Of a DNA stretch of 32,000 nucleotides, positions 7,028-32,000 are shown in pieces. Position numbers and translations under genes: made by a program. Below the pieces are notes generated by a model that worked only from the letters and a program-made list of their open reading frames with translations, made no database searches and was not told where the DNA came from. How positions within the stretch are numbered: position 1 is the first letter of the stretch; each line of letters opens with the position of its first letter. Source of the DNA: Patescibacteria group bacterium (GTDB lineage Bacteria > Patescibacteriota > Patescibacteriia > 2-01-FULL-39-33); assembly GCA_041662745.1 (NCBI GenBank), contig JBAZRV010000002.1:90001-122000 (forward strand), in the 5' to 3' direction.

Positions 7028-7028
7028 T

Positions 7029-15600: not shown

Positions 15601-15608
15601 TCAATTTT

Positions 15609-16295
15609 ATGCTGAGATGCGAAAATATAAATAAGATTTATCAGATGGGCGAGGATAATGAATTGGCGGTCCTGTCTGATATAAATTTCAAAATAGACAG
15701 GGGAGAATTCGTTGCTATTATCGGTCCTTCCGGTTCCGGCAAAACCACTTTGATGAATATTTTGGGCGCCCTGGATCATCCCAGTACCGGCAAGTATTAT
15801 CTTGATAATCAGGACGTGTTCAGTCTGTCTGACGAAGAGATAGCCTTGATCCGTTGCAAGAAAATCGGTTTTGTTTTCCAATCATTCAATTTATTATCGC
15901 GTTCTACGGTGTTGCGCAATGTCATGGTGCCTTTGATTTATGCCAAAGTGCCGAAAGAACAGCGTTTGGCTTTGGCAGAACAGGCGCTGAAAGCCGTGGG
16001 CTTGGAAGAAAACCGCTGGCGTCATTTATCCAATCAGCTATCCGGCGGGCAGATGCAACGCGTGGCCATCGCCCGGGCGCTGATTAATAATCCGGATATT
16101 ATTTTAGCCGACGAACCGACGGGCAATCTTGATTCCAAGACGGGAGAAATTACTTTGGAAACTTTTAAGCGCTTGAACCGCGAATACGGCCACACGATAA
16201 TCCTTATTACTCATGATCATAATGTGGCCAGCCACGCCGACCGGATAATTGAGATCAAAGACGGCCGGATTACCAGCGACAAAAAAATAAGATAA
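15609..16295 (+). CDS. ABC transporter ATP-binding protein (MacB/LolD-type)
   Basis: 228 aa. Walker [10 protein letters not shown], signature [15 protein letters not shown], Walker [12 protein letters not shown]. Confidence 0.95.
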
Positions 16296-16298
16296 CTT

Positions 16299-17522
16299 AT
16301 GCTGTTTTACGATTTATCACAAGAAACATACTTTTCTTTATTGTCAAACAAGTCTCGGTCCGTTTTGACGATTTTAGGCATTGTCATCGGTATTGCCTCG
16401 GTGATTGCCATGGTTTCTGTCGGTCAAGGGGCAACTTCCAGCATCACCAACAGGATTGAGTCATTAGGCACCAACTTATTGGTAATTTCCCCGACTTCGC
16501 AACGTCGTGCCGGAGAATTGGTGCGCGGCGGCATGGGTGAGGCCACAACCCTAATCCTGGAAGATGCTGAGGCGATTTATGCTTCTATTGATGGGATCAC
16601 TTCGGTAGCCCCGGCAGTTACTTCCCGTAAACAAGTTACGGCTAAAGGCACTAACACTAATACCAGTATTTACGGCATTGACGAAAATTACTTTGCCATT
16701 AAAAGCGTGGCTACTGATTTGGGGGCGTTATTCGGCGCTCAGCAAGTTAATTCCAACGCTCGCGTGGCCGTGATCGGACCCGCTACCAGAGACAGCTTAT
16801 TCGGTGAAGGCGCCGATTCAATCGGACAGAAAATTCGCATCAGCGGTCAGGAGTTTACTGTTATCGGCATTGCTCAATCCAAGGGCGGCACTACGATGGG
16901 CAGTTCCGATGACTTGATTTATATTCCCATCGGCGTGGCTCAGCAGTATTTCACCGGCAACAAGGCCGTCAGCAATATCAGTGTTCAGGTAGCTTCGGCT
17001 GATTTAATGGATTCGGTCCAGCAACAAATTTCTGATCTGCTCATGGCTCGTCATGGCATTGGCGATGTCAATAATCTTGACTTCAGCATCATGAATCAGG
17101 CGGACATGTTAAGCACTATGTCTTCGGTCTCTTCCACTTTGACTTGGCTTTTAGGCGCTATTGCCGGCATCTCGCTGGTGGTTGGTGGCATCGGCATTAT
17201 GAATATGATGTTGACCACCGTAACCGAGCGCACCAGGGAAATCGGCCTCAGGAAATCCTTGGGCGCCACGAATTCCGATATCAGCAGTCAGTTTTTAGCC
17301 GAATCCGTGGCCTTGACTTTTATCGGCGGGTTTTTCGGCATTATTATCGGTTGGCTGGCGTCTTATATTATCAGCGCTTTAGCCAGTATGGCAACGAGCG
17401 TTACCGGGACCTCGGTCTTGTTAGCTTTCGGCATTTCCGCTTTAATCGGTATCGTGTTCGGTTATTATCCGGCGCGACGCGCGGCCAAGCTTAATCCGAT
17501 TGACGCGTTGAGATATCAGTAA
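16299..17522 (+). CDS. ABC transporter permease, MacB/FtsX family
   Basis: 407 aa. N-terminal TM, large extracytoplasmic domain, three C-terminal TMs including ERTREIGLRKSLGA and a YYPARRAAKLNPIDALRY tail. Confidence 0.9.
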   Translation: MLFYDLSQETYFSLLSNKSRSVLTILGIVIGIASVIAMVSVGQGATSSITNRIESLGTNLLVISPTSQRRAGELVRGGMGEATTLILEDAEAIYASIDGITSVAPAVTSRKQVTAKGTNTNTSIYGIDENYFAIKSVATDLGALFGAQQVNSNARVAVIGPATRDSLFGEGADSIGQKIRISGQEFTVIGIAQSKGGTTMGSSDDLIYIPIGVAQQYFTGNKAVSNISVQVASADLMDSVQQQISDLLMARHGIGDVNNLDFSIMNQADMLSTMSSVSSTLTWLLGAIAGISLVVGGIGIMNMMLTTVTERTREIGLRKSLGATNSDISSQFLAESVALTFIGGFFGIIIGWLASYIISALASMATSVTGTSVLLAFGISALIGIVFGYYPARRAAKLNPIDALRYQ

Positions 17523-17655: not shown

Positions 17656-18132
17656 ATGAAACAAAAGCTACCTCTTCCTTTGATGATTTTGGTCACCGTA
17701 GTTGTGATCGTACTTGTCGGCGCCGCTTCTTTTTATGTCGGTACCAAGTATTCTTCAGCTAAGAGATTTGGCGCGTTTGGCAATGGCAATTTTGGCCAAG
17801 GGCAACAGTCGGGCGATGCCGCCATGGCCGGCCGCAGAGTCAATGCCCTCGGCGGGGGAATGATAAATGGTGATGTTTTGTCTTTGGATGAAAAGAGTCT
17901 CACAGTCAAGGGGCGTGATGGCAGTTCCAAGATGGTTTTTTTCGCCACTTCAACGGAAGTGGGTAGGTTTGCCGCCGGTACCGTCAGTGATTTGGCTGTC
18001 GGGCAGAATATTGTAGTGACCGGCAAGACCAACAGCGATGGCAGTGTTGTCGCTCAGTCAATTCAGATTCGTCCGGCTGCGGCTAACCCGGATCCTGGTA
18101 CGCCTAATGCTCCCGCCAATCCAGTTAAATAA
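17656..18132 (+). CDS. N-terminally anchored small extracytoplasmic protein (architecture paralogue of 13280..13774)
   Basis: 158 aa. TM LPLMILVTVVVIVLVGAASFYV, Gly-rich spacer, then GDVLSLDEKSLTVKGRDGSSKMVFFATSTEV...VSDLAVGQNIVVTGKTNSDGSVVAQSIQIRP. Confidence 0.6.
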   Translation: MKQKLPLPLMILVTVVVIVLVGAASFYVGTKYSSAKRFGAFGNGNFGQGQQSGDAAMAGRRVNALGGGMINGDVLSLDEKSLTVKGRDGSSKMVFFATSTEVGRFAAGTVSDLAVGQNIVVTGKTNSDGSVVAQSIQIRPAAANPDPGTPNAPANPVK

Positions 18133-18156
18133 TAATAAAATAATTTTGACCGCTAA

Positions 18157-18190
18157 AAAATATCCTCCTTGCGGGGGATATTTTATTTTT
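18157..18190 (+). terminator. rho-independent terminator
   Basis: Stem tatcctcc/gggggata (one G-U), loop ttgc, followed by ttttattttt. Confidence 0.75.
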
Positions 18191-18402
18191 ATGTACACGA
18201 TAATTAAGATAGTTCGAACGAATTTTAGGCCACCTGTGGCGGCCAAGGACAGCCCTCCCAAATAATTAATTTTATTTGAAGCGGGCAAAGCCCGCGATCT
18301 TTGACAATTTTCACTTTTTCTTTGGCGGAAAATTCTTTAATATTAAGGATTGGTTTGGAGTTGTTTCTATATTAAACACAATTTAATTTAACAATATCCA
18401 AG

Positions 18403-19176
18403 CTACAATCCTGACTTGCTTATAATTAAATCCACAAAAGAAGAGATTTTATTACTTAACGCCATGTCATCATTTGTATATTTATCTAAATTTTCATCCG
18501 CAAATATGTAATCTGTTTCATTAAAGTGATTATTAATTCCAACTCTAAGAGGTTTATAAAAATTATGAAAAGATTCTTGAAATCTAAATCTTTCGCTTCC
18601 CTTAGTGCCGACACCCATTAGTCTTCCAGAAAATGGATTATTCTTTTTGAGATTTGAAAGATTGTTCTTAATACTTTTATCGATTTCTATTTGACTAAAA
18701 TGGTAAGATATTTTATTTAGTGGAAAAGCAGAAGATAAACAGTTTCTATTTGAAAAGATTTCTATGCCATTTTCTATGAAGTTATAATCACAAACATATT
18801 CTTCATCTGGAAATGTCTGTCTTTCTTTGTATAATTCTAAATTAGTTGCTGAATTAGAAATATCTTTTTTTAGGATAAGAGATTTAGAAGTAATATCATA
18901 TACGTATATAAGCGTTTTAAATTTTTCTATTTTTCTTTCTCGGCAATCATTTTCAAACAAGAATAGACTAGATTTAACACATATTGGCTTTCTATAATAT
19001 TTATAATCCACAACATACCTAACAAAAGATATGCTTCCTGAATCTATGTTAGTTTTAAACCCACCTACAACATCCACTCTGTTTAACGGAGCTAGTATCT
19101 CAGTAATATTATTGCCAAATAATAAAAAAATAGCCGCTATAGCTATAAGGACTATAATAAAGTAACGTTTTTTCAT
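18403..19176 (-). CDS. orphan hypothetical protein with N-terminal TM/signal, encoded in a strongly AT-rich segment
   Basis: 257 aa. MKKRYFIIVLIAIAAIFLLF anchor. No motif I recognise. About 25% G+C on hand-counted lines, against about 45-50% in neighbouring genes. Confidence 0.6.
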   Translation of the reverse strand: MKKRYFIIVLIAIAAIFLLFGNNITEILAPLNRVDVVGGFKTNIDSGSISFVRYVVDYKYYRKPICVKSSLFLFENDCRERKIEKFKTLIYVYDITSKSLILKKDISNSATNLELYKERQTFPDEEYVCDYNFIENGIEIFSNRNCLSSAFPLNKISYHFSQIEIDKSIKNNLSNLKKNNPFSGRLMGVGTKGSERFRFQESFHNFYKPLRVGINNHFNETDYIFADENLDKYTNDDMALSNKISSFVDLIISKSGL

Positions 19177-19345
19177 AAATTTAGTATTAATAAATAACTT
19201 GTATTTAAAAATGATAAAAATTTTCTTTTACCCTGAATGCGAATTCAGACAAAACCGCCAATTGATTTTTGATTATAAAATTCCGTATGATTTGGTCGCC
19301 GCAAGCGGCGGCCAGACCGAGGGAAATTTGACTTTTATTCGAATG

Positions 19346-19417
19346 TACCGCCACGGGGAATCGAACCCCGATTACAGCCTTGAGAAGGCCGCGTCCTAAC
19401 CATTAGACGATGGCGGC
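19346..19417 (-). tRNA. tRNA-Glu (anticodon CUC), no encoded CCA
   Basis: Minus-strand read GCCGCCA TC GTCT AATGGTTA GGAC G CGGCC TTCTCAA GGCTG TAAT CGGGG TTCGATT CCCCG TGGCGGT A folds as a 72-nt cloverleaf. G1-U72 is a wobble pair. The D-arm TCGTCTAATGG..AGGAC is typical of tRNA-Glu. Confidence 0.85.
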
Positions 19418-19446
19418 AAAGTGTTATTTTTGTGAATTACTGAATT

Positions 19447-19475
19447 ATTATATCACAAATATCTTAAATAATCAA
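19447..19475 (-). promoter_or_regulatory. candidate sigma70-type promoter for the tRNA
   Basis: On the minus strand: TTGATT (plus 19475-19470), 17-nt spacer, TGaTATAAT (plus 19455-19447), about 30 nt upstream of the tRNA 5' end. Confidence 0.5.
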
Positions 19476-19582
19476 GTCGGCAGATGATTATTACCGGATT
19501 GGCCGATCATATCTCTTGCTTGTTTTCGCCTTGATTTTGATGTAAAATTAACTTAATTAATCCAAACATTTTAATTAATCTT

Positions 19583-21898
19583 ATGAATCTAAAGCAATTT
19601 TTGGCGCCGGCATTAAAAGTTGTAATCTGGGCCTGTTTGGCGGTGGTGCTGTTTTCCGCTTTATACGTCAGTTCCGCTCTGTTTTTCCCCTTTATCACCT
19701 CCAAGACTTTTGCTTTTCAAATTGCCGTAGAGGTAATGTTTTTGGCCTTTTTGTTGCTTTGTTTGGTTGATGACAAATACCATATCCGGCTTAATGTCAC
19801 CGTGCTTTTGCTCCTGCTTTATCTGATAATCTTAACTATCGCCTCGGCTTTTTCCGGCAACGACCTTTATCATTCTTTCTGGTCCAACAACGAGCGTTGC
19901 GACGGCATTCTATTGTTAATTCATTTATTTTTATTTTGCGCCGTCTTGTCGGGTTTTTTCCGCTCTGTCAAAGAATGGCTGTATCTTTTTGACCTGTTCT
20001 TGTTAGCTTCCTTTGCCGTCGCTTTGGTGGCGTTGGATCAATATTTGGCTTTGACCTTCGTCGGCTCTTGGAAGGATCACTTTTTACCCTCGTCAAACGG
20101 CGCGCGTTTGGCCGGAACCATCGGCAATTCCGGTTATGTCGGCGGTTATATGGTGTTTGGGATTTTTATCGCTTTATTCATGGCCTTGAAACGATCGCAG
20201 TGGTGGGCCAAGAGTTTGTATGTCTTAGCGATTATTTTGGAATTGTTCATCGCTGTCCAAACCTTCACTCGCGGCGCTTACCTGGCTTTGGGGCTGGGCG
20301 GATTCATCACCTTGGTTTATCTGGGTTATTTCTATTACAATAAATTGCGGTTGAAGATCGCAACCACGGGTTTAGTCTTAATCGTTTCATTATTTATCGT
20401 TGTCATCTTCGGTTGCGGCAGCGGCAAGATTTTAACCCCGGGTTTTGGGTTTTCTTGGGAGCAAGGATTCCATAAAACCGCCGTCTGCAATAATTTCGCT
20501 TATGCCAATCCGGTTTTAAAAAGAATCAATTCCATTTCCTTGACCGACGTTACCAGCAATAATCGCATCGTGGCTTGGACTATCGGTTTGAAGGGTATCG
20601 CCGCCAGGCCGATCCTGGGTTACGGCCAAGAGAATTTTTATCAAGTTTTTGACAAATATTATACGACTAAAAGTTCCGAACAGTGGTTTGATCGTTGCCA
20701 TAATATGTTTTGCGATCGCGCCGTAACCGGCGGAATTCCGGGTTTGCTGTCCTATCTGGCCGTTCTGTTATTACCCTTCTTCTTTTTGTGGAAATATTAT
20801 TTTAAGGAATACGGCAATAACAAAGAACAGGGGGATGCGGACAGGGATTACAAGAAGTATTTGACGCCGGTTATTTTCAGTATCTTGATTATCGCTTATC
20901 TGATCCAGAATTTTTTCATTTTTGAGGCCTTGGCGATTTACATCCCGCTGATAATCGTGTTGAGTTTCGTCGGCCAGTACAGCCGAAGTTGGAATTTTGA
21001 TTTTTTAGAAAATCATAATTTTAAAGTGGCTCTGGCCGTAATCGTCGGTATTTTGTTTCTGCCGGCGCTTTGGTTTTTCAGCTTGAAACCGTTTTACGCC
21101 AATGCCGATTTTATCAAAGCCCTGACCAGGCCTTGGCCGACCCTGCAAGATAAGATTGATTCCTTTGAAGAAGTTATCGGTCGCGGCACTTTGGGCAACC
21201 AAGAGTATCGCAAGCATTACTTTGATTTTTATGGCAACGAACTGATGAGTTATTTGTCCCAGGCAGCCAACCGCACATCGGACAAAGACCGGCAAATGGC
21301 CAATTGGTCCGATTTGATGGAAAACCAATTCTTAAATCAGTTGAAAGAAAATCCCCATAGCGTTACCAATTGGCTGTTGCTTGAAAGATTTTATAATATT
21401 TCTTATGTTTTCAATGTCAATCGCCTGCAGAAGGCTATCGGCATTGCCGATCAGATGATCGCTCTAAGTCCGGGCAGACCTCAGATATATTACGAAGCCG
21501 GCTCCGCTAATTATTATCTGGGCTGTTTCCTGCTGACTGAAAAAAATAACCCCGTGGAAGCCAAAAAGCAATATCAGCAAGCTTTGACCAGATTTTGGCA
21601 GGGCGCCAAGATCAATAATCAGGTCGGCAACGGCTTTGATCAATTCAGTGATTTTGTCTTATCCATTAAAAATAACGCCCAGATTGCCGATACGTTCGCT
21701 CAAGCCTTGGCTACGGGACCGCTAGACGATATAGCGCCCTTAGAATTAATCAAGCAATTGGCCGAATGGTCCAAGACGCCGGATGATCAGGCAATTATGG
21801 CGCAAAGGGAGGAGAAGCTTAAAACCATGGCCGTTTGGCTAATCGCTTCCCGAGCCGGCAATCCCGAATTAAAACAATACCTGGAAACAATCAAATAA
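19583..21898 (+). CDS. Wzy_C (O-antigen ligase-like) polytopic membrane protein with helical-repeat C-terminal domain (paralogue of 7029..9212)
   Basis: 771 aa. Many TMs. NRIVAWTIGLKGIAARPILGYGQENF...WFDRCHNMFCD aligns with the signature in 7029..9212. The C-terminal ~280 aa are soluble and helical. Confidence 0.75.
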   Translation: MNLKQFLAPALKVVIWACLAVVLFSALYVSSALFFPFITSKTFAFQIAVEVMFLAFLLLCLVDDKYHIRLNVTVLLLLLYLIILTIASAFSGNDLYHSFWSNNERCDGILLLIHLFLFCAVLSGFFRSVKEWLYLFDLFLLASFAVALVALDQYLALTFVGSWKDHFLPSSNGARLAGTIGNSGYVGGYMVFGIFIALFMALKRSQWWAKSLYVLAIILELFIAVQTFTRGAYLALGLGGFITLVYLGYFYYNKLRLKIATTGLVLIVSLFIVVIFGCGSGKILTPGFGFSWEQGFHKTAVCNNFAYANPVLKRINSISLTDVTSNNRIVAWTIGLKGIAARPILGYGQENFYQVFDKYYTTKSSEQWFDRCHNMFCDRAVTGGIPGLLSYLAVLLLPFFFLWKYYFKEYGNNKEQGDADRDYKKYLTPVIFSILIIAYLIQNFFIFEALAIYIPLIIVLSFVGQYSRSWNFDFLENHNFKVALAVIVGILFLPALWFFSLKPFYANADFIKALTRPWPTLQDKIDSFEEVIGRGTLGNQEYRKHYFDFYGNELMSYLSQAANRTSDKDRQMANWSDLMENQFLNQLKENPHSVTNWLLLERFYNISYVFNVNRLQKAIGIADQMIALSPGRPQIYYEAGSANYYLGCFLLTEKNNPVEAKKQYQQALTRFWQGAKINNQVGNGFDQFSDFVLSIKNNAQIADTFAQALATGPLDDIAPLELIKQLAEWSKTPDDQAIMAQREEKLKTMAVWLIASRAGNPELKQYLETIK

Positions 21899-23290: not shown

Positions 23291-23347
23291 TTGATTTTTT
23301 TAGCTTATTTTTGATATAATATTAAGGTATTGATTGATAATTTACAA
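23291..23347. promoter_or_regulatory. interdigitated divergent promoter pair, copy B
   Basis: Same elements as copy A shifted by 183 nt. The substitutions fall in the spacers, not in the hexamers. Confidence 0.45.
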
Positions 23348-23354
23348 GACCACT

Positions 23355-24206
23355 ATGAACAAATTAATCGGTTTTATCGGCCAGGGTTGGATCGGCAAAA
23401 ATTATGCCGATGACTTTGAAGTTAGAGGTTATCAAGTGATTCGCTATTCTTTGGAAGAACCCTATCTCGCCAACAAGGAAAAAATCAGCGAGTGCGATAT
23501 CGTGTTTATTGCCGTGCCTACTCCTACCACTCAAGCGGGGTTTGATGATTCCATCGTCAGAAGCGCCGTAAAGCTGGTCGGCCAAGGCAAGCTTGCGGTA
23601 ATCAAATCTACGATTCTGCCCGGTACGACAGAGTCAATCCAAGCGGAAAACCCAGGCGTTTATTTGTTTCATTCGCCGGAGTTTCTGTCCGTTTCCACCG
23701 CTTATGACGATTCGCGCCATCCGCAAAGGAATATTGTCGGCCTGCCCATAGATAATGAGGAATATAAAACCAAAGCCCGAGAGGTGATGTCGGTGTTGCC
23801 CCAAGCTGATTTTTCTCTTATTACTTCCGCCAAAGAAGCGGAGTTGTTCAAATATTTACGGAATTGCTTTTTTTACACCAAAGTCGTCTATATGAATATG
23901 CTTTATGATCTGGCTAAGAAACTGGGTTGCCGGTGGGAAGTGTTAAGGGAAATCATGTCCAATGATCCCTGGATCGGCAACATGCATATTGATCCGGTGC
24001 ATAAAAGCGGCCGGGGCGCCGGCGGAGAATGCTTTATTAAGGATTTGGCCGCGCTTAGGCGTTTCCACAAGCAAAATCTGAACGATGAAACGACGGATTG
24101 GGTTTTTTCCGCCTTGGAGAAAAAGAATATTGAATTACTGCTAAAAAGCCAAAAAGATTTGGATTTGCTCAAAGGCGTTTACGGCGAAGATATATTTAAG
24201 AGATAG
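23355..24206 (+). CDS. nucleotide-sugar dehydrogenase-like protein (UDP-glucose/GDP-mannose dehydrogenase family, short form)
   Basis: The ATG at 23355 is preferred over the TTG at 23334. GFIGQGWIG Rossmann motif. CDIVFIAVPTP, KSTILPGTT and SPEFLSVSTAYDDSRHPQRNIVG resemble the family N-terminal and central motifs. At 283 aa it is shorter than canonical members. Confidence 0.6.
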   Translation: MNKLIGFIGQGWIGKNYADDFEVRGYQVIRYSLEEPYLANKEKISECDIVFIAVPTPTTQAGFDDSIVRSAVKLVGQGKLAVIKSTILPGTTESIQAENPGVYLFHSPEFLSVSTAYDDSRHPQRNIVGLPIDNEEYKTKAREVMSVLPQADFSLITSAKEAELFKYLRNCFFYTKVVYMNMLYDLAKKLGCRWEVLREIMSNDPWIGNMHIDPVHKSGRGAGGECFIKDLAALRRFHKQNLNDETTDWVFSALEKKNIELLLKSQKDLDLLKGVYGEDIFKR

Positions 24207-24209
24207 TTT

Positions 24210-24243
24210 GCTATGTAACCTGTTACGTAGCATGCTACGTAAC
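24210..24243. repeat. three GCTAyGTAAC half-sites (direct, inverted, direct) at 12-bp spacing, including a perfect 22-bp palindrome
   Basis: gctatgtaac (24210-24219), gttacgtagc (24222-24231), gctacgtaac (24234-24243). 24222-24243 equals its own reverse complement. The element sits in the 47-nt gap between two operon genes. Confidence 0.8.
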
Positions 24244-24253
24244 AATTTATCAC

Positions 24254-25441
24254 ATGCCTGCGGAAAACAAAAAAAGAATCTTGATTTTTTCTTTGGCTTA
24301 CCATCCGTTTGTGGGCGGAGCCGAAGTGGCTATCAAAGAAATTACCGAGCGATTGGGTGAAGATTTTGAATTTGACATGATCACGGCCAACTTGAGTGGC
24401 CATGAGCCGAAGGAGGTTGAGAATTTTAACGGCCTTAACAAAGTTTATCGCCTCGGTTCCGGGAAACTTGATAAATATCGTTTTCCTTGGCTGGCCTATC
24501 GGAAGGCCCTGGAATTGCAACGGCAGAACGATTATGACTTGATTTGGGCGATGATGGCTAATCAAGCGGGCTGGGCGGCTTGGAAATTCAAGCGCCGATT
24601 TCCGCAAATCCCTTATTTATTGACCCTGCAAGAAGGGGACAGCGAGCGGGATATTTGGCTTCGCACTTGGTTTATCCGGCCGCTTTATAAGGCGATTTAC
24701 CGCCGCGCCGATCGGATTCAGGCGATCAGTAATTTTTTGGCCCGGCGCGCCAAGCGTTTGGGCGCGAAGTGTCCGATTGAGGTAGTGCCGAATGGAGTAG
24801 ATCAGTTAAAAATTAATAATGAAGAATTAAGAAATAAAAGTAATAGCATAAAAAGGGTTATCTCAGTTTCAAGGTTGGTTAATAAAAATGGCTTAGAGGA
24901 TTTGATTAAAGCAATTGCGATAGTCAATAAAGACAATGATAAGCCGGTAATTTTAAAAATTATCGGAGAAGGAAGATTAAGAAACGAGTTAGAAAAACTG
25001 ATTAAAAAATTAAAAATAAATGACCGGCCTGTAGTAAAGGAATTAGACAAGGAGGAAATAGTTTTGGCGGGGCAAGTTTCTAATAAGCAGGTGTATCAAT
25101 ATTTATCTCAAGCCGATGTTTTTGTCCGTCCCTCATTGTCCGAAGGTTTGGGTAACGCTTTTCTGGAAGCGATGGCTGCGGGGGTGCCGGTAATCGGCAC
25201 GCCGGTCGGCGGGATTCCTGATTTCTTAAAAGGCGAGGAAGCGGGAGACGGGCAGACCGGTTGGTTCTGCGAAGTGAAAAATCCTGAAAGCATTGCGAAA
25301 AAGATTAGATTGATTTTTGATCCCCAAAATCAGGAATTAGTTAAAGTAGTAACAACTCGGGCTAAAAAGTTGGTGGAAGAAGAATACGATTGGGATGCAA
25401 TCACTAGTAAGATAGATAAAATTTTTACACAATTATTATAA
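24254..25441 (+). CDS. GT4-family glycosyltransferase (contains an internal AT-rich patch)
   Basis: 395 aa. LAYHPFVGGAEV N-terminal motif. C-terminal SEGLGNAFLEAMAAGVPVIGTPVGGIPDF. Confidence 0.9.
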   Translation: MPAENKKRILIFSLAYHPFVGGAEVAIKEITERLGEDFEFDMITANLSGHEPKEVENFNGLNKVYRLGSGKLDKYRFPWLAYRKALELQRQNDYDLIWAMMANQAGWAAWKFKRRFPQIPYLLTLQEGDSERDIWLRTWFIRPLYKAIYRRADRIQAISNFLARRAKRLGAKCPIEVVPNGVDQLKINNEELRNKSNSIKRVISVSRLVNKNGLEDLIKAIAIVNKDNDKPVILKIIGEGRLRNELEKLIKKLKINDRPVVKELDKEEIVLAGQVSNKQVYQYLSQADVFVRPSLSEGLGNAFLEAMAAGVPVIGTPVGGIPDFLKGEEAGDGQTGWFCEVKNPESIAKKIRLIFDPQNQELVKVVTTRAKKLVEEEYDWDAITSKIDKIFTQLL

Positions 25442-25452
25442 ACTCTAAATTT

Positions 25453-27156
25453 ATGGCCGAGACAAACAAAAACTTTTGGCAAAAAAATGAAAAAAAGATT
25501 TTGTGGCTGATTATAATTTTAGCGGTGATCTTAAGATTCTGGAATATTTCTACTTTTGATGTCATGGTTGACCACGCCCTTTATTCCGTTCGCGCGCTGG
25601 GTTGGTTTGATTATTTGGGCGGCGGCCAAACCGCCCCTGTTCAGTGGTTCGGCACGATCCCTGCTTGGGCGCTATTATCTTTCCATGACTGCCCACCCTT
25701 GGTTTTTTTCATCCAGAAAATATTTTTTTCTATTTTAGGTGATAATACTTTTGCCTCCAGATTACCCCATGCCTTAGCCGGAATTTTGAGCGTACTCTTG
25801 GTTTATCTGTCGGTAAAGAAAATCAAAAGCGTCCAAGCCGCTCTGTGGTCGGCCGTTGTTATGGCTGTTTCTTCTTATGCCGTCTGGGCTTCTTATGCTG
25901 GCTATCTGGAGGGAGTGGAAGTTTTGTTTATCGTGTTAAGCTTGTATTTTTTCATTTGTTATCTGGCCGATGGCAAAAATAAGAATCTTTATTGGTGGGC
26001 AGCAGCCGCCGGCTTGGCTTTCTTGTCTAAATACACTTCTGTTTTCTTGCTGCCCGTCGGCTTATTATGCTTACTTGGCCTTAATTATCGCGCGCTTAAG
26101 AATAGTTGGCAGAAAATTTTTTACTCCCTGTTGATTTTTTTGGGCGTAATCTCACCGGTGATTTTTTATAATATCATGGTTTTTAAATACCGCGGTCATT
26201 TTGACGCTTCATTGTCCGCCATGGTCGGCATGCACCCGCAAGATTATTCGGCGATTGCCGTTCGGGTGGTCAACGCTAATATTATTGGAAATTTTTCCAA
26301 TTTAATAAATTGCTTTCCCCTGGGCAGTTCTTGGCCCTTGGTCGCGATTTTTATTTTGGCCCTGACTTATCTTTTATTTAAGACCATTCGCGGTCGAAGC
26401 GGCAAGGCGGAAATTTTTATCTTAGCGAACGTCTTGGCCGCCGGATTAATGTTTTGCTTCGGCGAGCCGGCCTACCGGCAGGTTTCTATTTTTATACCGT
26501 TTTTAGTTATTGTGGCCGCCATTCTTTTTGCCGATCTTAGCGTTTACTTATCAGGCAAAAAATATCATTTAGGTGGTGTTTTTAAGTTATTGGCTTTAGC
26601 CGTACTAGTGGCGGAGTTCGGTTATTGCGTGAATACTAATATCTTGCTTAAGTCCTGGGGTAGCGCTCCCTGGTTTTCTTCTTCCCAGCGCTTAGCCAGT
26701 AATGGCTGGAATGAATTGGAAATATATTGGCGTGATAATTTATTGCCGCCGGTTATGGATCGGCAGAAAATCAGGCGGCTGGAGGAAATGCCGCTCAGTT
26801 CGCGGGATTTTTCCGGCAAGAATGTTATTTTTTATGATGATAATGTAAATTGGTTTTCTTCTATGTGGTATATCGAAAAATACCCGTTGTATTATCGCGT
26901 TCCGCTTTTGCCGCTGTCTTATTTATTGAATCAGCCCCAAGCCCTGGAGCAGTTTAGATCTTTTGGCGCTAAGGATTTTTATTATGTTTCCATTGTTAAT
27001 CCGCAAGCCACAGATCCCGTGGTCAGTAAAAATGAGTCTTTGATGAAAGCCATTGAGCAATTAAACGCCAAATTGGTTGAGGATAAAATCGGTTTTGTGG
27101 AAATTAAAAACGCCGAGGGCGAGGCGGCCTTCAGGATTTATAAATTAAATTATTAA
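25453..27156 (+). CDS. GT-C fold glycosyltransferase, PMT/ArnT-like (GT39/GT83-type) polytopic membrane protein
   Basis: 567 aa. About 10 or more TMs. First-loop acidic motif FDVMVDHALY, FHDCPPLVFF (HPPL-like), soluble C-terminal domain. Confidence 0.7.
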   Translation: MAETNKNFWQKNEKKILWLIIILAVILRFWNISTFDVMVDHALYSVRALGWFDYLGGGQTAPVQWFGTIPAWALLSFHDCPPLVFFIQKIFFSILGDNTFASRLPHALAGILSVLLVYLSVKKIKSVQAALWSAVVMAVSSYAVWASYAGYLEGVEVLFIVLSLYFFICYLADGKNKNLYWWAAAAGLAFLSKYTSVFLLPVGLLCLLGLNYRALKNSWQKIFYSLLIFLGVISPVIFYNIMVFKYRGHFDASLSAMVGMHPQDYSAIAVRVVNANIIGNFSNLINCFPLGSSWPLVAIFILALTYLLFKTIRGRSGKAEIFILANVLAAGLMFCFGEPAYRQVSIFIPFLVIVAAILFADLSVYLSGKKYHLGGVFKLLALAVLVAEFGYCVNTNILLKSWGSAPWFSSSQRLASNGWNELEIYWRDNLLPPVMDRQKIRRLEEMPLSSRDFSGKNVIFYDDNVNWFSSMWYIEKYPLYYRVPLLPLSYLLNQPQALEQFRSFGAKDFYYVSIVNPQATDPVVSKNESLMKAIEQLNAKLVEDKIGFVEIKNAEGEAAFRIYKLNY

Positions 27157-27174
27157 CGCTAATCGTTATTTGCT

Positions 27175-27897
27175 ATGAAAGATATTTTATTATTGCCCAC
27201 CTACAACGAGAGAGAGAATGTCAAAATGATTATTCCTGAAATTTTTTCCCTTATTCCCGAAATAGTAGTCATGGTTATCGATGATAATTCACCTGACGGC
27301 ACGGCGCAAGCGGTGCAAGAGTTGATGACGATTTATCCCCGGTTAAGAATTTTGAAACGAGAAAAAAAGACCGGACTGGGCAATGCCTATAAGGAGGCGA
27401 TGCGTTTGGTTATGGCTGAAGACGGTGTCCGCTCGGTTATCACTATGGATGCCGATGGTTCTCATCAGCCCAAGTATTTGGTTGATTTTTTGGCTAATAT
27501 TAATGATTATGATTTAATCATTGGTTCGCGCTATATCCGGGGTGGCGGCGTAGAGAACTGGGAATTTTGGCGCCGTTGTTTAAGCCGTTTCGGCAATATT
27601 TATTCCAAGATTCTTACCGGCCTGCCGATTAATGATTTCACCGCCGGTTTTATGTGTGTTAAGGTGGATTTTTTAAAGCAGTTAGATTTGGTTAGTGCCG
27701 GCGCCTCGGGTTATTCTTTTTTGATTGAATTGAAATTCAATTTGATCCATAACCTAAAAGCCAGAGTCAAGGAAGTGCCGATTATATTCAAAGTGAGAAG
27801 GGAAGGAGAATCCAAGCTGTCTAACTCAATTATCGGCGAGGGAATAATGACCCCGCTAAGAATTTGTTCCAGAAGAATATGGCAGAACAAAAAATAA
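27175..27897 (+). CDS. polyprenyl/dolichyl-phosphate mannose synthase-like GT2 (Ppm1/DPM1 family)
   Basis: 240 aa. LLPTYNERENV, VIDDNSPDGT and ITMDADGSHQP motifs, typical of DPM1-like GT2 enzymes. Confidence 0.85.
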   Translation: MKDILLLPTYNERENVKMIIPEIFSLIPEIVVMVIDDNSPDGTAQAVQELMTIYPRLRILKREKKTGLGNAYKEAMRLVMAEDGVRSVITMDADGSHQPKYLVDFLANINDYDLIIGSRYIRGGGVENWEFWRRCLSRFGNIYSKILTGLPINDFTAGFMCVKVDFLKQLDLVSAGASGYSFLIELKFNLIHNLKARVKEVPIIFKVRREGESKLSNSIIGEGIMTPLRICSRRIWQNKK

Positions 27898-30800
27898 TTT
27901 GCCCGATTTGCCGATCGGCTGACAATAAATTTTACGGCCAGAAAAATAATTTCAATCTGCGGTTATGCCGGGATTGCGATTTGCTTTTTGTTTGGCCGGT
28001 GCCGTTTGATTTAAAAGGAATTTATTCTCAAGATTATTTTGTTAACAGTCGGAATAACAGTGATTTCGGTTATACCAATTATGATCAGGATAAAGAATCA
28101 ATGCGCGAGGTATTTGTAAAAATCATCAGTCAGTTGGAAAAGCTTATCCCAGGTAGAAGAATTTTTGATGTCGGCGCGGCCACCGGTTATTTTTTGGACT
28201 TGACTAAGCAGCGGGGCTGGCAGACCGCGGGAACGGAAATATCTGACTACGCCGCTAAGGTCGCTAATGAACGCGGACATAGGGTTTTTTGCGGTGAGTT
28301 GGATCAGCTGCCAATTGAGGGTAAATTCGATGTGGTGACGATGTGGGACGTACTGGAGCATATTGGCGATCCCCTGGCCTATCTCAAGAAGGCTAATGAC
28401 CTATTGGTTGATGGCGGCTTAGTGGCCATCAATACTGTAGATCGGGGCAGCGCTTTGGCCAGGGTTCTTGGGTTGAATTGGCATTTGATTGTCCCGCCGG
28501 AGCATTTGAATTTTTATTCCCGCGAAAATTTAGAGATCGTTTTGCGACAAGCCGGGTTTGAAATCATTAGTATTTCCACTATCGGAAAGAAATTTTCTCT
28601 GGCGTATATTTTTAAGACGTTGTATTTCTGGCAGGGCTGGGGCTTATGGCGCAGTTTGTCAGTGTTTTTTGACAAACCGTTTTGGCGCCGCTGGTCTTTG
28701 CCGGTAAACTTGCGTGACAATATTTATATTTTGGCGAGAAAGAGAAGCAGTTCGATTGTCCGATTGCCAGGGGAAAACGCCGGTAAGCGAAAAAATTTAT
28801 TAATTTGTGCCGGCATTTATCCGCCGGATATCGGTGGCCCGGCAACTTATGTGAAGGGTTTAGAAAGGGGATTAGCCGAAGAATTTAATGTCAAAATCGT
28901 GACTTACGGCGACCAAGAAGGCCAAGAACCCTCTCACGTTTATAAGATATCTCGCCAACAGCAAGTTGTTTTTAGATATTTAAAATATTTTTGGCAGGTG
29001 GTTAAGTTATTGCCGCAAGCGGATGTTGTTTATATTCAGGGGCCGGTTTCCGAAGGCTTGCCGGCTGCTGTGGCTTGCGGTTTAAGGCGCAAGGCATACC
29101 TATTAAAAATCGTCGGTGATTTTGCTTGGGAGCAGGGCAGCCAGCGTTATGGCGTCAAGGAGAATCTTGATAATTTTCAGCACAATAAATACGGTTTCAA
29201 GATTGAATTATGGCGGCGGATTGAAAAATGGGTGGCGCAGAAAGCCAAGTTGGTTGTCGTTCCCAGTAATTATTTGAAAAAAGTCGTTACCGGTTGGGGC
29301 ATTAAAGCTGACAAAATAAATGTCATCTATAATGCGATTGAAAGAATTGATATTATTGAAAACCGAGAGCAGCTAAGAAATAAGTATGGCCTGGATGGTT
29401 TTGTTATGTTATCGGTCGGTCGCCTAGTCCCCTGGAAGGGCTTGGCCGCCCTGATTGAAGTAGTCAAAGAATTGTCTGCAGAAATTAATGATTTAAAATT
29501 AGTGATTATCGGTGACGGCCCGGAGCGTCAGAATTTGGAGAATTCAGTTAAGGCCAAAGGGTTGGAGAAAAACATTATTTTTACCGGGCAATTAAGCAGG
29601 TCTGAGGTGGCTGCTTACTTGAAGGCCGCAGATTTGTTTATTTTAAACACTTCCTATGAGGGGTTAAGCCATGTTTTAATTGAGGCTATTAAGGCCGATT
29701 TGCCGATAGTTACGACCGCTGTTGGCGGTAATCCTGAATTAATGGAGCAATATGGCCACGGCTTTATGGTGGCCTATAATAATAAGCCGGAGTTGATTCA
29801 AGCAATCAAACAAGCTAGAAAAATTAATCGTCCGATTGAGACGACTGGAGATTTTTTATTGCAGTTCGATTATGATTTTATGGTTAGTCAGACCGGTCGG
29901 TTATTGCGGGCTGAAGCGGTTAGAACCGATATTGCCATTACCGATCAAAGACGAGAGAAAATTTTAAACGACTGTGATCGGCAAACTATTGTTTTAGTTC
30001 AGATTAATTTTAGCCAAGACCATTCGGAAACAGTTTTGCCCCTAGGCATCTTATCGGTCGGCAGCCATTTGAAACGTTGCGGCTATAAAGTTGAACTGGT
30101 AAATATTACGGAAAAACAAATTACTGAGATAGCCGCGATTATCGCCGAGAAAAATCCGCTCTGTGTCGGCTTATCAGTTATGACCGGCGTGCAGACGCGC
30201 CAGAGCGCTGAATTATCCAAAAAAATAAAAACTTTAAATAAGGCCATACCAATTATTTGGGGCGGTATTCATCCGTCGCTTTTGCCAGAGCAGTGTCTGG
30301 GTGAGGATTACATTGATTTCGTAGTTATTTCTGAGGGAGAGATAACTACGACGGAATTAGTAGAAAAAATAATCAGAGGAGGGGATTTTCATGATGTTTT
30401 AGGCATCGGCTATAAGCAAGCCGGAAAAATTACCATCAATCCCAACCGCCCGTTTATTGCCAACCTTGATGATTTCCGCCTTGATTGGTCTTTATTGGAT
30501 TTGGAGCTTTATATTTCTCCGTTGAAAAATTTTAAGCGAGTTATTGCTTACAAGGCCTCGCGCGGTTGCCCGTTTAATTGCTCTTTTTGCTATAATAATG
30601 CCTTTAATCAGAATAAGTGGCGTGTTTGGTCGGTGGAGGCGGTAGCGGAGGACATTAATTGGCTGAAAGAGCATTATCAGATTGATGCCGTTAAATTTTA
30701 CGATGATAATTTTTTTGTTGATAAGAATCGCGCTTGGCAGATCTTAGAAAAAATAAATTTACCGACGCATTTGGAGGTGCGAATTGATACGATTGACGAC

Positions 30801-31415
30801 GACTTGGCTCAAAAACTCAAAGAGTTTAGGGTTTTTGACATGTTAATCGGCGTCGAGTCGGGCAGCGATCGCATTTTAAGTCTAATCGATAAAAGATTTA
30901 CCGTTGATCGTATTTTGGCCGGAGTAAAGCTTTTAGCCAAGTATAATTTACCGGCTACTTATTCGGCGATTGTCGGTTTGCCGACGGAAACCAAGGAAGA
31001 GTTTGACCGAACAGTTGACTTGTTTAATCAAATTAAAAAAATTCAGCCGTCCGCGGTTTTTTCCTTAGGCGCTTATTTGCCTTATCCGGGATCAAAAATG
31101 TATGATTTTGCCATTAAGCAGGGTTTTAAGCCGCCAACTAAAACAGAAGATTGGGGCAAGATTGATCGTTTTAGGAAAGATTTTAGTTCGCCTTGGGTGA
31201 ACGCGCAAAAAGTTTGGCGGATTAGGGAATACTTTAAACTCCTGAATTGGCGGCTTGGTCCAATTATCAAGTGGTTTAAATGGCGCATTGAGCATCGATT
31301 TTTTGCTTGGCCGATAGATATTTATTTAGTGGAATACTTTGGCGGTATAGCTATTGAACAGAGGGGGTTTTTAGGCAAGACACTAAGAAAAATTTATAAT
31401 TTATTAAGAAGATAA
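27879..31415 (+). CDS. tri-domain fusion: Zn-ribbon class I SAM methyltransferase + GT4 glycosyltransferase + B12-binding radical SAM enzyme
   Basis: The ATG at 27879 is preferred over the TTG at 27864. CPICRS-N17-CRDCD zinc ribbon. DVGAATG motif I. GT4 core IYPPDIGGPATY...EGLSHVLIEAIKADLPIVTTAVGGNPE. B12-binding-like VLPLGILSVGSHLKRCGYKVELV...VGLSVMTG...IIWGGIHPS. Radical SAM CPFNCSFC at nt 30567-30590. Confidence 0.8.
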   Translation: MAEQKIICPICRSADNKFYGQKNNFNLRLCRDCDLLFVWPVPFDLKGIYSQDYFVNSRNNSDFGYTNYDQDKESMREVFVKIISQLEKLIPGRRIFDVGAATGYFLDLTKQRGWQTAGTEISDYAAKVANERGHRVFCGELDQLPIEGKFDVVTMWDVLEHIGDPLAYLKKANDLLVDGGLVAINTVDRGSALARVLGLNWHLIVPPEHLNFYSRENLEIVLRQAGFEIISISTIGKKFSLAYIFKTLYFWQGWGLWRSLSVFFDKPFWRRWSLPVNLRDNIYILARKRSSSIVRLPGENAGKRKNLLICAGIYPPDIGGPATYVKGLERGLAEEFNVKIVTYGDQEGQEPSHVYKISRQQQVVFRYLKYFWQVVKLLPQADVVYIQGPVSEGLPAAVACGLRRKAYLLKIVGDFAWEQGSQRYGVKENLDNFQHNKYGFKIELWRRIEKWVAQKAKLVVVPSNYLKKVVTGWGIKADKINVIYNAIERIDIIENREQLRNKYGLDGFVMLSVGRLVPWKGLAALIEVVKELSAEINDLKLVIIGDGPERQNLENSVKAKGLEKNIIFTGQLSRSEVAAYLKAADLFILNTSYEGLSHVLIEAIKADLPIVTTAVGGNPELMEQYGHGFMVAYNNKPELIQAIKQARKINRPIETTGDFLLQFDYDFMVSQTGRLLRAEAVRTDIAITDQRREKILNDCDRQTIVLVQINFSQDHSETVLPLGILSVGSHLKRCGYKVELVNITEKQITEIAAIIAEKNPLCVGLSVMTGVQTRQSAELSKKIKTLNKAIPIIWGGIHPSLLPEQCLGEDYIDFVVISEGEITTTELVEKIIRGGDFHDVLGIGYKQAGKITINPNRPFIANLDDFRLDWSLLDLELYISPLKNFKRVIAYKASRGCPFNCSFCYNNAFNQNKWRVWSVEAVAEDINWLKEHYQIDAVKFYDDNFFVDKNRAWQILEKINLPTHLEVRIDTIDDDLAQKLKEFRVFDMLIGVESGSDRILSLIDKRFTVDRILAGVKLLAKYNLPATYSAIVGLPTETKEEFDRTVDLFNQIKKIQPSAVFSLGAYLPYPGSKMYDFAIKQGFKPPTKTEDWGKIDRFRKDFSSPWVNAQKVWRIREYFKLLNWRLGPIIKWFKWRIEHRFFAWPIDIYLVEYFGGIAIEQRGFLGKTLRKIYNLLRR

Positions 31416-31431
31416 CTGTTTATGAGGATTT

Positions 31432-32000
31432 TAGTTTTCGGATCAGATCCGGCAATTTTAAATAGTTCCTCCAGCGTCGCTCAAAGAGCTATTGATGCCA
31501 GTATTGGTATTGATAAATATTCAGTAATCGTTCCTAATTATTCCGATGTAATAAAGCAGCATCAAGAAAATCTCTGGATTTACGGAGTCAACGCTAAAAA
31601 TAAAATAGTTGCTTCATATAAGATTTATCGCCTGGCCAATCAGCTTTTAAAAAAAGAAAAATTTGATTTAATTACCACCCCCGATGCTTATTATCTGGCT
31701 TTGGCCGGTTGGCTGTTGACCAGAAAAAATAAAATAAAATTAGAAGTTCAAATCCATGGCTTTGAAAAATTTTTTGGTCTGCGGAAACTCATTGCTAAAT
31801 TTGTTTTACCCCGGGCTGATGCCGTCAGGGTTGTCAGTGAGCGGCTCAGAAGAATGATGGTTAGGGAGTTTGGGGTTGTTAATGATAAAATTACGGTCGT
31901 GCCGGTTTTTTCTCCGCCTTACATAAATAATGATAATAGTAATCAGCCAGCGGCAGAACGCCAAGCGGGCAAGTTTGTTTTTTTAACTGTTTCTCGGTTG
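31432..32000 (+). CDS. glycosyltransferase (GT4-like N-terminal domain), 3'-truncated by the window end
   Basis: Open frame from the ATG at 31432 to the window edge: MRILVFGSDPAIL...DLITTPDAYYLALAGWLL...RADAVRVVSERL... Not in the supplied ORF track because no stop is reached. Confidence 0.6.

Follow-up and report, generated by a model that had tools for sequence, protein, structure and literature searches.

A methyltransferase, a family 4 glycosyltransferase and a B12-type radical SAM module in a single Patescibacteria polypeptide encoded in a surface-glycan cluster

Introduction

Tailoring of a sugar after its transfer is known from antibiotic biosynthesis and proposed for hopanoid biosynthesis. 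In the hopanoid pathway, HpnJ follows HpnI, a glycosyltransferase, and HpnK, a deacetylase; the gentamicin residue tailored by GenN and GenD1 is installed by a glycosyltransferase. GenN, a class I N-methyltransferase, and GenD1, a cobalamin radical S-adenosylmethionine (SAM) C-methyltransferase, act on one and the same glycosyl residue (PMC4340712). Enzymes of these kinds are found here in a single polypeptide, encoded in a stretch of 32,000 nucleotides from a Patescibacteria group bacterium (assembly GCA_041662745.1, contig JBAZRV010000002.1, positions 90,001 to 122,000 of the forward strand), hereafter the window, to which all coordinates without a contig name refer. The protein joins a class I SAM methyltransferase (MT), a family 4 glycosyltransferase (GT4) and a B12-binding/radical SAM (rSAM) module. 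The gene fusion is real, rare and lineage-specific, and it lies in a conserved Patescibacteria surface-glycan cluster. Taken one by one, the modules belong to familiar kinds of enzyme, and analogues of their combination exist.

One reading frame with three modules

An initial annotation of the window described an uninterrupted frame of about 1178 codons, and this is borne out by the listing of open reading frames (ORFs), which has a single ORF at 27864..31415 on the forward strand, open from ATG 27879 to the stop at 31415. The protein counts 1178 amino acids (aa) from this ATG, or 1183 aa if the first TTG is used. The ATG is preferred because it agrees with the orthologs, in which the first zinc-ribbon cysteine sits 3-10 residues from the N-terminus; the ORF and the upstream family 2 glycosyltransferase (GT2) gene overlap by 19 nt. 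A 1178-codon open frame in DNA of 42% GC is far beyond chance, and GC content and GC skew are even over the whole ORF, including both junctions. For the identical protein, one public collection (P0001, 1144 aa) places the start 34 codons past ATG 27879 (window 27864-27981); this start is probably mis-called and drops three of the four conserved cysteines of the zinc ribbon. The fusion comprises the following features, for which confidence is given as the predicted local distance difference test (pLDDT).

27879..31415, forward strand: whole fusion ORF, 1178 aa plus stop; alternative TTG start at 27864
27900..27977, forward strand: four-cysteine zinc ribbon CxxC-N18-CxxC (C8, C11, C30, C33), read from the sequence
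28110..28571, forward strand: core of the class I SAM methyltransferase (aa 78-231; Methyltransf_23, E 2.4e-29); motif I DVGAATG at nt 28167-28187
28572..28748, forward strand: MT tail (aa 232-290), Trp/Phe- and Lys/Arg-rich (Trp 8.5%, Lys plus Arg 18.6%), putative membrane-interface segment of presumed binding function
28749..28781, forward strand: linker 1, MT to GT4 (aa 291-301), pLDDT <50; length and sequence vary with respect to P0002, frame kept
28782..29939, forward strand: GT4 module (aa 302-687), Glyco_transf_4 plus Glycos_transf_1; EX7E motif E594-E602 at nt 29658-29684
29940..29975, forward strand: linker 2, GT4 to B12 domain (aa 688-699), pLDDT <50; variable but in frame in P0002, P0003 and L011
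29976..30383, forward strand: Rossmann-type B12-binding domain (aa 700-835), Pfam match at aa 720-827
30555..31022, forward strand: radical SAM core (aa 893-1048), CxxxCxxC at C897/C901/C904; CPFNCSFC at nt 30567-30590
31134..31412, forward strand: helical rSAM tail (aa 1086-1178), putative membrane-interface or substrate-binding segment; Trp 7.5%, Lys plus Arg 21.5%

Five Pfam domains are detected on the protein, each above its gathering cut-off, and they make up the three modules. The identities first proposed for these modules are upheld by the Pfam profile search, NCBIfam and the predicted fold, and the proposed boundaries agree with two low-confidence AlphaFold linkers at aa 291-301 and 688-699. 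The motifs DVGAATG (aa 97-103), EX7E (E594-E602) and CPFNCSFC (exactly at nt 30567-30590) are all found where they had been described. The zinc ribbon is also present, with a spacer of 18 residues between C8/C11 and C30/C33 instead of the 17 first counted. The two linkers are the most variable stretches in an alignment of three full-length proteins and differ by whole codons. Confidence over the MT part of the full-length AlphaFold model is low because its alignment contained few MT homologs, and this model served for linker positions only.

No transmembrane helix is found in the fusion protein (top Kyte-Doolittle 19-residue mean 1.48). The Trp content reaches 7.5-8.5% in the MT and rSAM tails, together with about 20% Lys plus Arg, versus 1.6% in the module cores. 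Because these tails are rich in Trp and in Lys/Arg, and their Trp residues are conserved in the stand-alone families, the protein would associate peripherally with the membrane through its two aromatic/basic tails.

Reality and distribution of the fusion

A long ORF could be an artefact of chimeric assembly, of a sequencing frameshift between separate genes or of a pseudogene in decay, and in more distant relatives the modules are indeed separate genes. Such an origin is extremely improbable here. A second, independent assembly, that of run SRR6484324 in Logan, contains a contig of 11.8 kb (L009) that is 100.000% identical to window 24222-32000 (7779 nt) without any gap. Composition is uniform over the junctions and all catalytic motifs are intact. 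The order MT-GT4-B12-rSAM is found again in P0002 (contig L001, JGI sample 3300013138), which is 74% identical, keeps the MT-GT4 junction and is cut by the contig end only. In P0003 (JGI 3300075153, 1246 aa), GT4, linker and B12-rSAM are kept and a different GT4 replaces the MT, while in L011, a contig from a JGI metagenome, the C-terminus of the GT4, the linker and the N-terminus of the B12 domain are contiguous and in frame. The GT4-rSAM junction stands in frame in three other metagenomes at 64-81% aa identity, and linker indels come in multiples of three. The fusion advanced by the initial annotation is therefore real and conserved, and the artefact that it wished to see excluded, with stops or separate genes at the junctions, is contradicted both by the identical second assembly and by relatives that keep the junctions in frame.

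The rSAM part of L011 (positions 700-1440 of contig Ga0265297_10042256) runs over three frames, with two single-base indels in homopolymer runs. Such a broken frame would suit an artefact or a gene in decay, but pseudogenisation of L011 was rejected since both frameshifts lie in homopolymer runs and the translation is 80% identical on either side, a pattern that points to sequencing error rather than to decay.

All three modules in this order occur in only two sequence clusters among 5.8 billion, one of which is the window's own sequence. No three-way fusion was found in a scan of GTDB species representatives with the full protein as query, which returned a locus with separate MT and GT genes (L002) and loci with a distant rSAM or GT (L003/L004). 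A scan of JGI metagenomes with the GT4-rSAM junction as query gave just the known JGI contig and the new contig L011, which is why the fusion is regarded as rare. The architecture had been presented as not belonging to a described family, and this holds: no NCBIfam equivalog covers the fusion, and the literature searched contains no description of the MT-GT4-rSAM architecture, nor of B12-rSAM enzymes in Patescibacteria glycan clusters. The architecture is nevertheless less isolated than it first appeared, with an rSAM module that belongs to a large stand-alone family and with MT and rSAM as optional partners around the GT4.

The B12-binding/radical SAM module and its chemistry

The N-terminal domain of this module matches the B12-binding profile PF02310 with 73.6 bits against a cut-off of 32.1 (E 1.5e-20), as expected of a class B enzyme, and the core matches Radical_SAM PF04055 with 87.7 bits against 29.5 (E 1.3e-24); C897, C901 and C904 are invariant in 45 homologs, in keeping with membership of the radical SAM superfamily. 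In the model of the C-terminal module (pLDDT 90.5, predicted template modelling score (pTM) 0.86), a Rossmann domain with five strands and five helices precedes a partial TIM barrel, and the chain ends in a helical tail. In a Foldseek comparison with the PDB, the top matches are OxsB, QCMT/MgmA, TsrM, AprD4, TokK and CysS, with E-values from 2e-21 to 1e-16. The predicted fold is that of the 'class I' B12-radical SAM arrangement (PMC12931638).

The C-terminal 489 aa, searched against 1.84 billion cluster representatives, gave 4459 matches below 1e-30, mostly proteins of 470-500 aa, and a word-indexed search with the rSAM module gave 717 matches below 1e-40. The best word-indexed matches are stand-alone proteins of 474-488 aa with 60-71% identity over 97% of the module, referred to here as the rSAM-B family; those with a name are annotated as Parcubacteria, Patescibacteria, Zambryskibacteria, Pacebacteria or Tagabacteria. 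The window's module belongs to this family by its full-length similarity and by its synteny with downstream GT4 and GT genes (L001, L005-L009). The Trp residues of the tail are near-invariant throughout the stand-alone family. In four loci (L005-L008), GT4 genes are followed by rSAM-A, rSAM-B, a GT4 of about 375 aa and a GT of about 345 aa, and the surroundings hold Wzy_C, nucleoside diphosphate (NDP)-sugar dehydrogenase-like, epimerase/dehydratase, GT2/GtrA and PMT_2 genes. rSAM-A is a 481-aa B12-rSAM paralog of about 29% identity located directly before rSAM-B (L005:6556-8001, L006:6554-7999, L008:6552-7997); its best NCBIfam model is HpnJ, at 159 bits and under cut-off, and it is not adjacent to the window's fusion. 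The second B12-rSAM of L001 (9110-10573) was considered as a displaced copy of the module and rejected as a 29% paralog. Another relative of rSAM-B, P0191 (818 aa), has its B12 domain separated from the radical SAM core by an intein (Intein_splicing plus the homing-endonuclease domain LAGLIDADG_3).

As regards chemistry, cobalamin-mediated C-methylation is favoured because the B12-domain match is good and because GenN and GenD1 provide a precedent on one sugar; even so, the assignment is tentative and more likely wrong than right. Several results weigh against it. AprD4 is both the best PDB sequence match (E 7e-15) and the structure with the best TM-scores (0.69/0.74, root-mean-square deviation 4.5), and it is a sugar diol-dehydratase that binds no cobalamin (PMC12931638). 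A related Rossmann-like domain without cobalamin binding is found in both AprD4 and ArsL (PMC12931638). The named B12-rSAM equivalogs score far under their NCBIfam cut-offs (BchE 137/481, HpnJ 128/578 for TIGR03471, AprD4 65/500 bits), and a scan with Rfam detects no cobalamin riboswitch in the window. To our knowledge, no diagnostic sequence motif for cobalamin binding exists. The equivalogs tested include BchE, HpnJ, PhpK, ApyD, HpnR, BzaD, AprD4 and KedN5, among which BchE is the best, and the stand-alone protein P0228 behaves alike; as all named equivalogs fall far below cut-off, family membership gives no hint of the chemistry. Of the cobalamin-type enzyme first annotated, the B12 domain and the fold stand; cobalamin use does not follow from them, given that AprD4, the best structure by TM-score, binds none, and for the same reason C-methylation is just one of several chemistries to consider.

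A non-methylating reaction is a doubtful alternative too, yet almost as probable as C-methylation. It would be either a sugar rearrangement, such as a ring contraction giving a carbocycle, of the kind proposed for HpnJ, Cds and OxsB, or a 1,2-diol dehydration like that of AprD4, and might proceed without cobalamin. The standing of AprD4 as best match in sequence and TM-score is in its favour, the more so as this cobalamin-free enzyme acts on a glycoside (PMC12931638). Of the NCBIfam models, HpnJ ranks near the top for the module (128 bits) and first for rSAM-A, the paralog usually found beside rSAM-B (159 bits), and a Polysacc_deac_1 gene lies further along the same cluster. We also know of no evidence that Patescibacteria are cobalamin makers. 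For HpnJ and Cds, contraction of the head-group sugar has been proposed (PMC13459092). Against such reactions, the N-terminal domain is a good Pfam B12-binding match (73.6 versus 32.1 bits), and at the sequence level the B12-domain region aligns with cobalamin-binding OxsB and not with AprD4, whose match covers the radical SAM core only. With all NCBIfam scores far under cut-off, HpnJ and BchE are moreover not separable from the methylases PhpK and ApyD. Cobalamin use by the rSAM module is plausible on these sequence grounds, and C-methylation is retained as the favoured, tentative chemistry.

The methyltransferase module

Membership of the class I methyltransferases is clear from the PF13489 match (105.7 bits against a cut-off of 27). 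D97, G99 and G103 of the DVGAATG motif and the segment WDVLEH are invariant in alignment A5 of the MT family, and the cysteines of the zinc ribbon are invariant (4/4) in alignments A3 and A5. A stand-alone ortholog of 300 aa in L002 is 44% identical over its full length, zinc ribbon and aromatic tail included. The same zinc-ribbon family is fused to glycosyltransferases both ways, as MT-GT in P0029 and P0048 and as GT4-MT in P0031.

The initial annotation had noted that zinc-ribbon class I methyltransferases include sugar C- and O-methyltransferases; the profile searches do not place the module in the sugar C-methyltransferase families. PF08421 (Methyltransf_13) and PF08484 (Methyltransf_14) give no match to the module at E <= 0.05, so that it does not belong with TcaB9- or TylC3-type enzymes. 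The PDB profile matches are generic class I cores (3cc8, 1vlm, UbiG), followed by weaker matches to TcaB9, KijD1 and TylC3 in the core alone; the match to TcaB9 covers the generic MT core alone (aa 93-232, E 6e-8) and ranks under UbiG-type O-methyltransferases.

The glycosyltransferase module and a collinear locus

Both lobes of the GT-B fold are recognised in the GT4 module, as Glyco_transf_4 (PF13439; aa 318-488, 54.1 bits, E 2.5e-14) and Glycos_transf_1 (PF00534; aa 496-646, 132.9 bits, E 1.1e-38). Neither glutamate of the EX7E motif (E594, E602) varies within the fusion clade, and pLDDT exceeds 90 throughout the module, which is a member of the GT4 family. It falls far below every cut-off of the NCBIfam GT equivalogs. 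One of these, TIGR04157 'glyco_rSAM_CFB', is a GT family named after its co-occurrence with radical SAM genes, and the module reaches 87.6 bits on it against a cut-off of 400. Patescibacteria double-GT4 proteins of about 750 aa match it with their C-terminal half, at 40-50% identity.

The genes on either side of the fusion are the following.

24254..25441, forward strand: GT4 glycosyltransferase, a homolog of the additional N-terminal GT4 in P0003 (32% identity)
25453..27156, forward strand: GT-C glycosyltransferase (PMT_2), with a 49% identical syntenic ortholog in L013
27175..27897, forward strand: upstream GT2, polyprenol-phosphate-sugar synthase-like; PpgS, AglJ and Dol-P-hexose transferase models below cut-off; matched at 60% identity by the N-terminal part of the fusion in L013
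31422..32000, forward strand: start of the downstream GT4 (376 aa in L009), ATG 31422, running off the window

The locus L013 is collinear with this part of the window, with the gene order UGDH-like (NDP-sugar dehydrogenase-like), GT4, PMT_2, GT2-GT4-GT4 and a GT of the 345-aa type. Identities to the window are 83% for the UGDH-like protein, 51% for the GT4 and 49% for PMT_2. At L013:10001-14065, a protein of 1354 aa (P0004) fuses a Dpm1-like GT2 (60% identity to the window's) with two GT4s, one orthologous to the window's module (50%) and one corresponding to the GT4 encoded downstream (42%), and has about 390 further residues beyond the assigned GT units. Neither MT nor rSAM-B is found in L013 at the position of the fusion gene. 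Because L013 has the GT4 ortholog at the same position without these two modules, the GT4 looks like the positionally conserved core, to which MT and rSAM-B would have been added as optional accessory modules in the window's lineage.

Neighbouring genes tend to become fused at this locus. As GT2 and the orthologous GT4 are fused in L013, the two are functionally linked. A polyprenol-phosphate-sugar synthase together with a GT-C usually forms a parallel branch and does not act downstream of a cytoplasmic GT4. The initial proposal that the fusion product feeds the adjacent GT2/GT-C pair is thus partly supported, as far as the link with GT2 is concerned; a flow of product from the fusion to the pair is conjectural.

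Other fusions of the same enzyme kinds

Fusions of MT, GT and B12-rSAM modules recur elsewhere, in other orders and with other GT families. Among relatives of rSAM-B, several proteins of 721-731 aa have a C-terminal class I MT, P0087 is rSAM-GT4 and P0084 is rSAM-GT9. P0178 consists of a small MT, half a GT and then a B12-rSAM, and P0215, a larger fusion of 1879 aa, has the order B12-rSAM, class I MT, GT2, class I MT, GT2, B12-rSAM, with GT2 instead of GT4. The MT of the 721-731-aa proteins was considered as a member of the window's MT family and rejected (22-29% identity, core only, without the zinc ribbon).

That covalent coupling reflects functional coupling, as first proposed, is supported by these other multi-domain proteins; the more specific scheme of one sugar undergoing two reactions goes further than they do. 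Two points weigh against this scheme. The MT in the 721-aa proteins comes from another class I subfamily than the window's, so that the association of MT with rSAM is one of superfamilies, or enzyme kinds, and not of orthologs. The full-length AlphaFold model (pTM 0.49) shows no confident inter-domain packing.

The fusion may serve co-expression, stoichiometry or co-localisation alone, with modules that act on different residues or at different steps, which is unlikely but deserves weight. The locus fuses its neighbours variously, as GT2-GT4-GT4 in L013, GT4-GT4-rSAM in P0003 and MT-GT4-rSAM in the window, a pattern suggestive of opportunistic joining of genes that lie side by side in the cluster. 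Both linkers are disordered, the model predicts no set packing of the domains, and most rSAM-B orthologs are stand-alone. The occurrence of analogous MT/GT/B12-rSAM fusions in unrelated orders and with different GT families argues instead for a coupling closer than adjacency. As to the activity of each module, co-localisation is compatible with the explanation preferred here, namely sugar addition and tailoring by one three-module enzyme.

The surrounding glycan cluster

The cluster contains Wzy_C/tetratricopeptide repeat (TPR) proteins, many GT4s, an NDP-sugar dehydrogenase-like gene, the polyprenol-phosphate-sugar synthase-like GT2 and the GT-C. L001 and L005-L009 all keep the order rSAM-B, GT4 of about 375 aa and GT of about 345 aa. 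After this GT, both L001 and L009 have a polysaccharide deacetylase (Polysacc_deac_1), a small MT-like protein and further genes; those further downstream in L001 include a radical SAM/SPASM protein and another B12-rSAM.

This setting bears on whether the rSAM or MT modules, or both, might act on something other than a carbohydrate, such as the polyprenol carrier, a membrane lipid or a glycosylated surface protein or peptide. B12-type rSAM enzymes are known to modify lipids (HpnP/R, Grs, Gmm; PMC13459092), peptide-modifying NCBIfam models (ApyD, a C-methyltransferase of RiPPs, peptides made by the ribosome and modified after translation) are among the matches of the module, and the Wzy_C/TPR and PMT_2 proteins of the cluster could glycosylate proteins. 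Such substrates are improbable in view of the covalent joining of the rSAM module to glycosyltransferases in several lineages and of the GT genes that flank the stand-alone orthologs in 4/4 loci examined; the neighbourhoods showed neither precursor-peptide genes nor genes for lipid synthesis.

Further genes were recorded in the window. An NDP-sugar dehydrogenase-like protein of 290 aa at 23334-24206 (+), for which only the N-terminal and central Pfam domains are matched, has counterparts of 83% identity in L013 and 55% in L008. Two large Wzy_C (O-antigen ligase/polymerase-like) proteins with C-terminal TPR repeats are encoded at 7002-9212 (+) and 19583-21898 (+), and L012 has three Wzy_C/TPR genes in tandem; proteins of this kind could pass the completed glycan on to its target. 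Upstream of the glycan cluster, genes for an HlyD-like adaptor, for an ABC ATPase and for a permease of the MacB/FtsX type make up a tripartite efflux-type operon (13828-17522, +). The positions 18001-20000 have a low GC content (0.32-0.37 versus about 0.43 elsewhere) and hold a 257-aa ORF without Pfam match at 18403-19176 (-) and a tRNA-Glu(CTC) gene at 19345-19417 (-). An ORF of 1189 aa at 2559-6128 (+) has no Pfam match at E <= 0.001. Two genes for sigma factors of the extracytoplasmic function (ECF) type lie in the regions 414-2152 and 12188-12757, the first followed by a DUF5667 protein, and a DUF5666 protein is encoded at 17656-18132.

Proposed function and significance

The fusion is best explained as a peripheral-membrane enzyme of three modules that puts a sugar onto a lipid-linked glycan and also tailors it, a scheme whose chances of being right and of being wrong appear evenly balanced. 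The protein would work at the cytoplasmic face of the membrane during assembly of a lipid-linked surface glycan. Its central GT4 would transfer a sugar from a nucleotide sugar to the growing, probably lipid-linked, glycan. By means of a 5'-deoxyadenosyl radical, the rSAM module would alter an unactivated carbon, either of the added sugar or of a neighbouring one, most likely by the cobalamin-mediated C-methylation discussed above, and the zinc-ribbon class I MT would add a conventional O- or N-methyl group.

The significance of the fusion lies first in what it may say about rSAM-B, a family encoded by hundreds of Patescibacteria sequences, with two or three such genes per large glycosyltransferase cluster in the loci examined, and for which no function is assigned in NCBIfam or in the literature searched. 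The fusion links this widespread family to cell-surface glycan assembly and, as a 'Rosetta stone', points to the product of the fused GT4 as the substrate of rSAM-B, which would narrow the search to a product of glycosyl transfer; other fusions of the same three enzyme kinds point the same way. It is possible, though with doubt, that rSAM-B is a dedicated sugar-modifying radical enzyme that acts on the product of the fused GT4 and installs a C-methyl-branched, deoxygenated or carbocyclic residue in a lineage-wide surface glycan. As a single polypeptide, the fusion is convenient for heterologous reconstitution.

We know of no characterised example of a class B radical SAM enzyme in cell-surface glycan assembly. 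If the proposed chemistry is true, the reach of these enzymes would widen from antibiotics, cofactors and lipids to that process, and the envelope of ultra-small symbiotic bacteria might depend on cobalamin. If cobalamin is truly used, symbionts with reduced genomes would need B12 scavenged from hosts or neighbours just to build their envelope. If the fusion serves co-expression only, it would be one more multi-domain glycan enzyme.

Comparison with known systems

The structurally characterised B12-rSAM enzymes OxsB, TsrM, TokK, QCMT/MgmA and CysS share with the window's module the two-domain arrangement of a Rossmann domain and a partial TIM barrel with CxxxCxxC (PMC12931638). They differ from it by an identity of 14-19%, by their substrates (nucleoside, Trp, carbapenem and a methyl-coenzyme M reductase (MCR) peptide) and by the fact that none is joined to a glycosyltransferase or a class I MT. 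AprD4, the rSAM 1,2-diol dehydratase of apramycin (PDB 6fd2), resembles the module in its glycoside substrate and in being the top PDB match in sequence and by TM-score. Unlike the module, with its good PF02310 match, it binds no cobalamin (PMC12931638); its identity is about 18%, and the sequence match is confined to the radical SAM core.

HpnJ, with HpnI and HpnK, and Cds are parallels for remodelling after glycosyl transfer: they are B12-domain rSAM enzymes proposed to act on a sugar head group once a glycosyltransferase has worked (PMC13459092). In the hopanoid pathway, the HpnJ step is also preceded by a deacetylase (PMC13459092), and the window's cluster has its Polysacc_deac_1 gene. HpnJ and Cds are, in contrast, stand-alone enzymes with membrane-lipid acceptors, and the window's module is not an HpnJ ortholog since it scores 128 bits on TIGR03471 against a cut-off of 578.

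The double-GT4 proteins of about 750 aa and P0004 of L013 share with the fusion one GT4 unit of 40-50% identity, in L013 at the same syntenic position; the fusion partners in these proteins are glycosyltransferases and not SAM enzymes. Stand-alone rSAM-B proteins of about 476-484 aa, such as P0228 ('B12-binding domain-containing radical SAM protein [Candidatus Parcubacteria bacterium]'), differ from the window's module in that only a minority carry any partner, a C-terminal class I MT, whereas here the module forms the C-terminus of an MT-GT4 protein; rSAM-A precedes them in four loci and has no adjacent counterpart here. They are otherwise alike, with 60-71% identity over the full C-terminal module, the same invariant residues, the same Trp-rich tail and the same downstream GT4 of about 375 aa and GT of about 345 aa.

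A functional parallel to the proposed scheme is that of GenN and GenD1. These are separate proteins of an actinomycete antibiotic pathway with a soluble pseudotrisaccharide as substrate, compared with the cell-surface glycan proposed here, and they are of the same enzyme kinds as the SAM-dependent modules of the fusion, carrying out two distinct SAM-dependent methylations on one residue.

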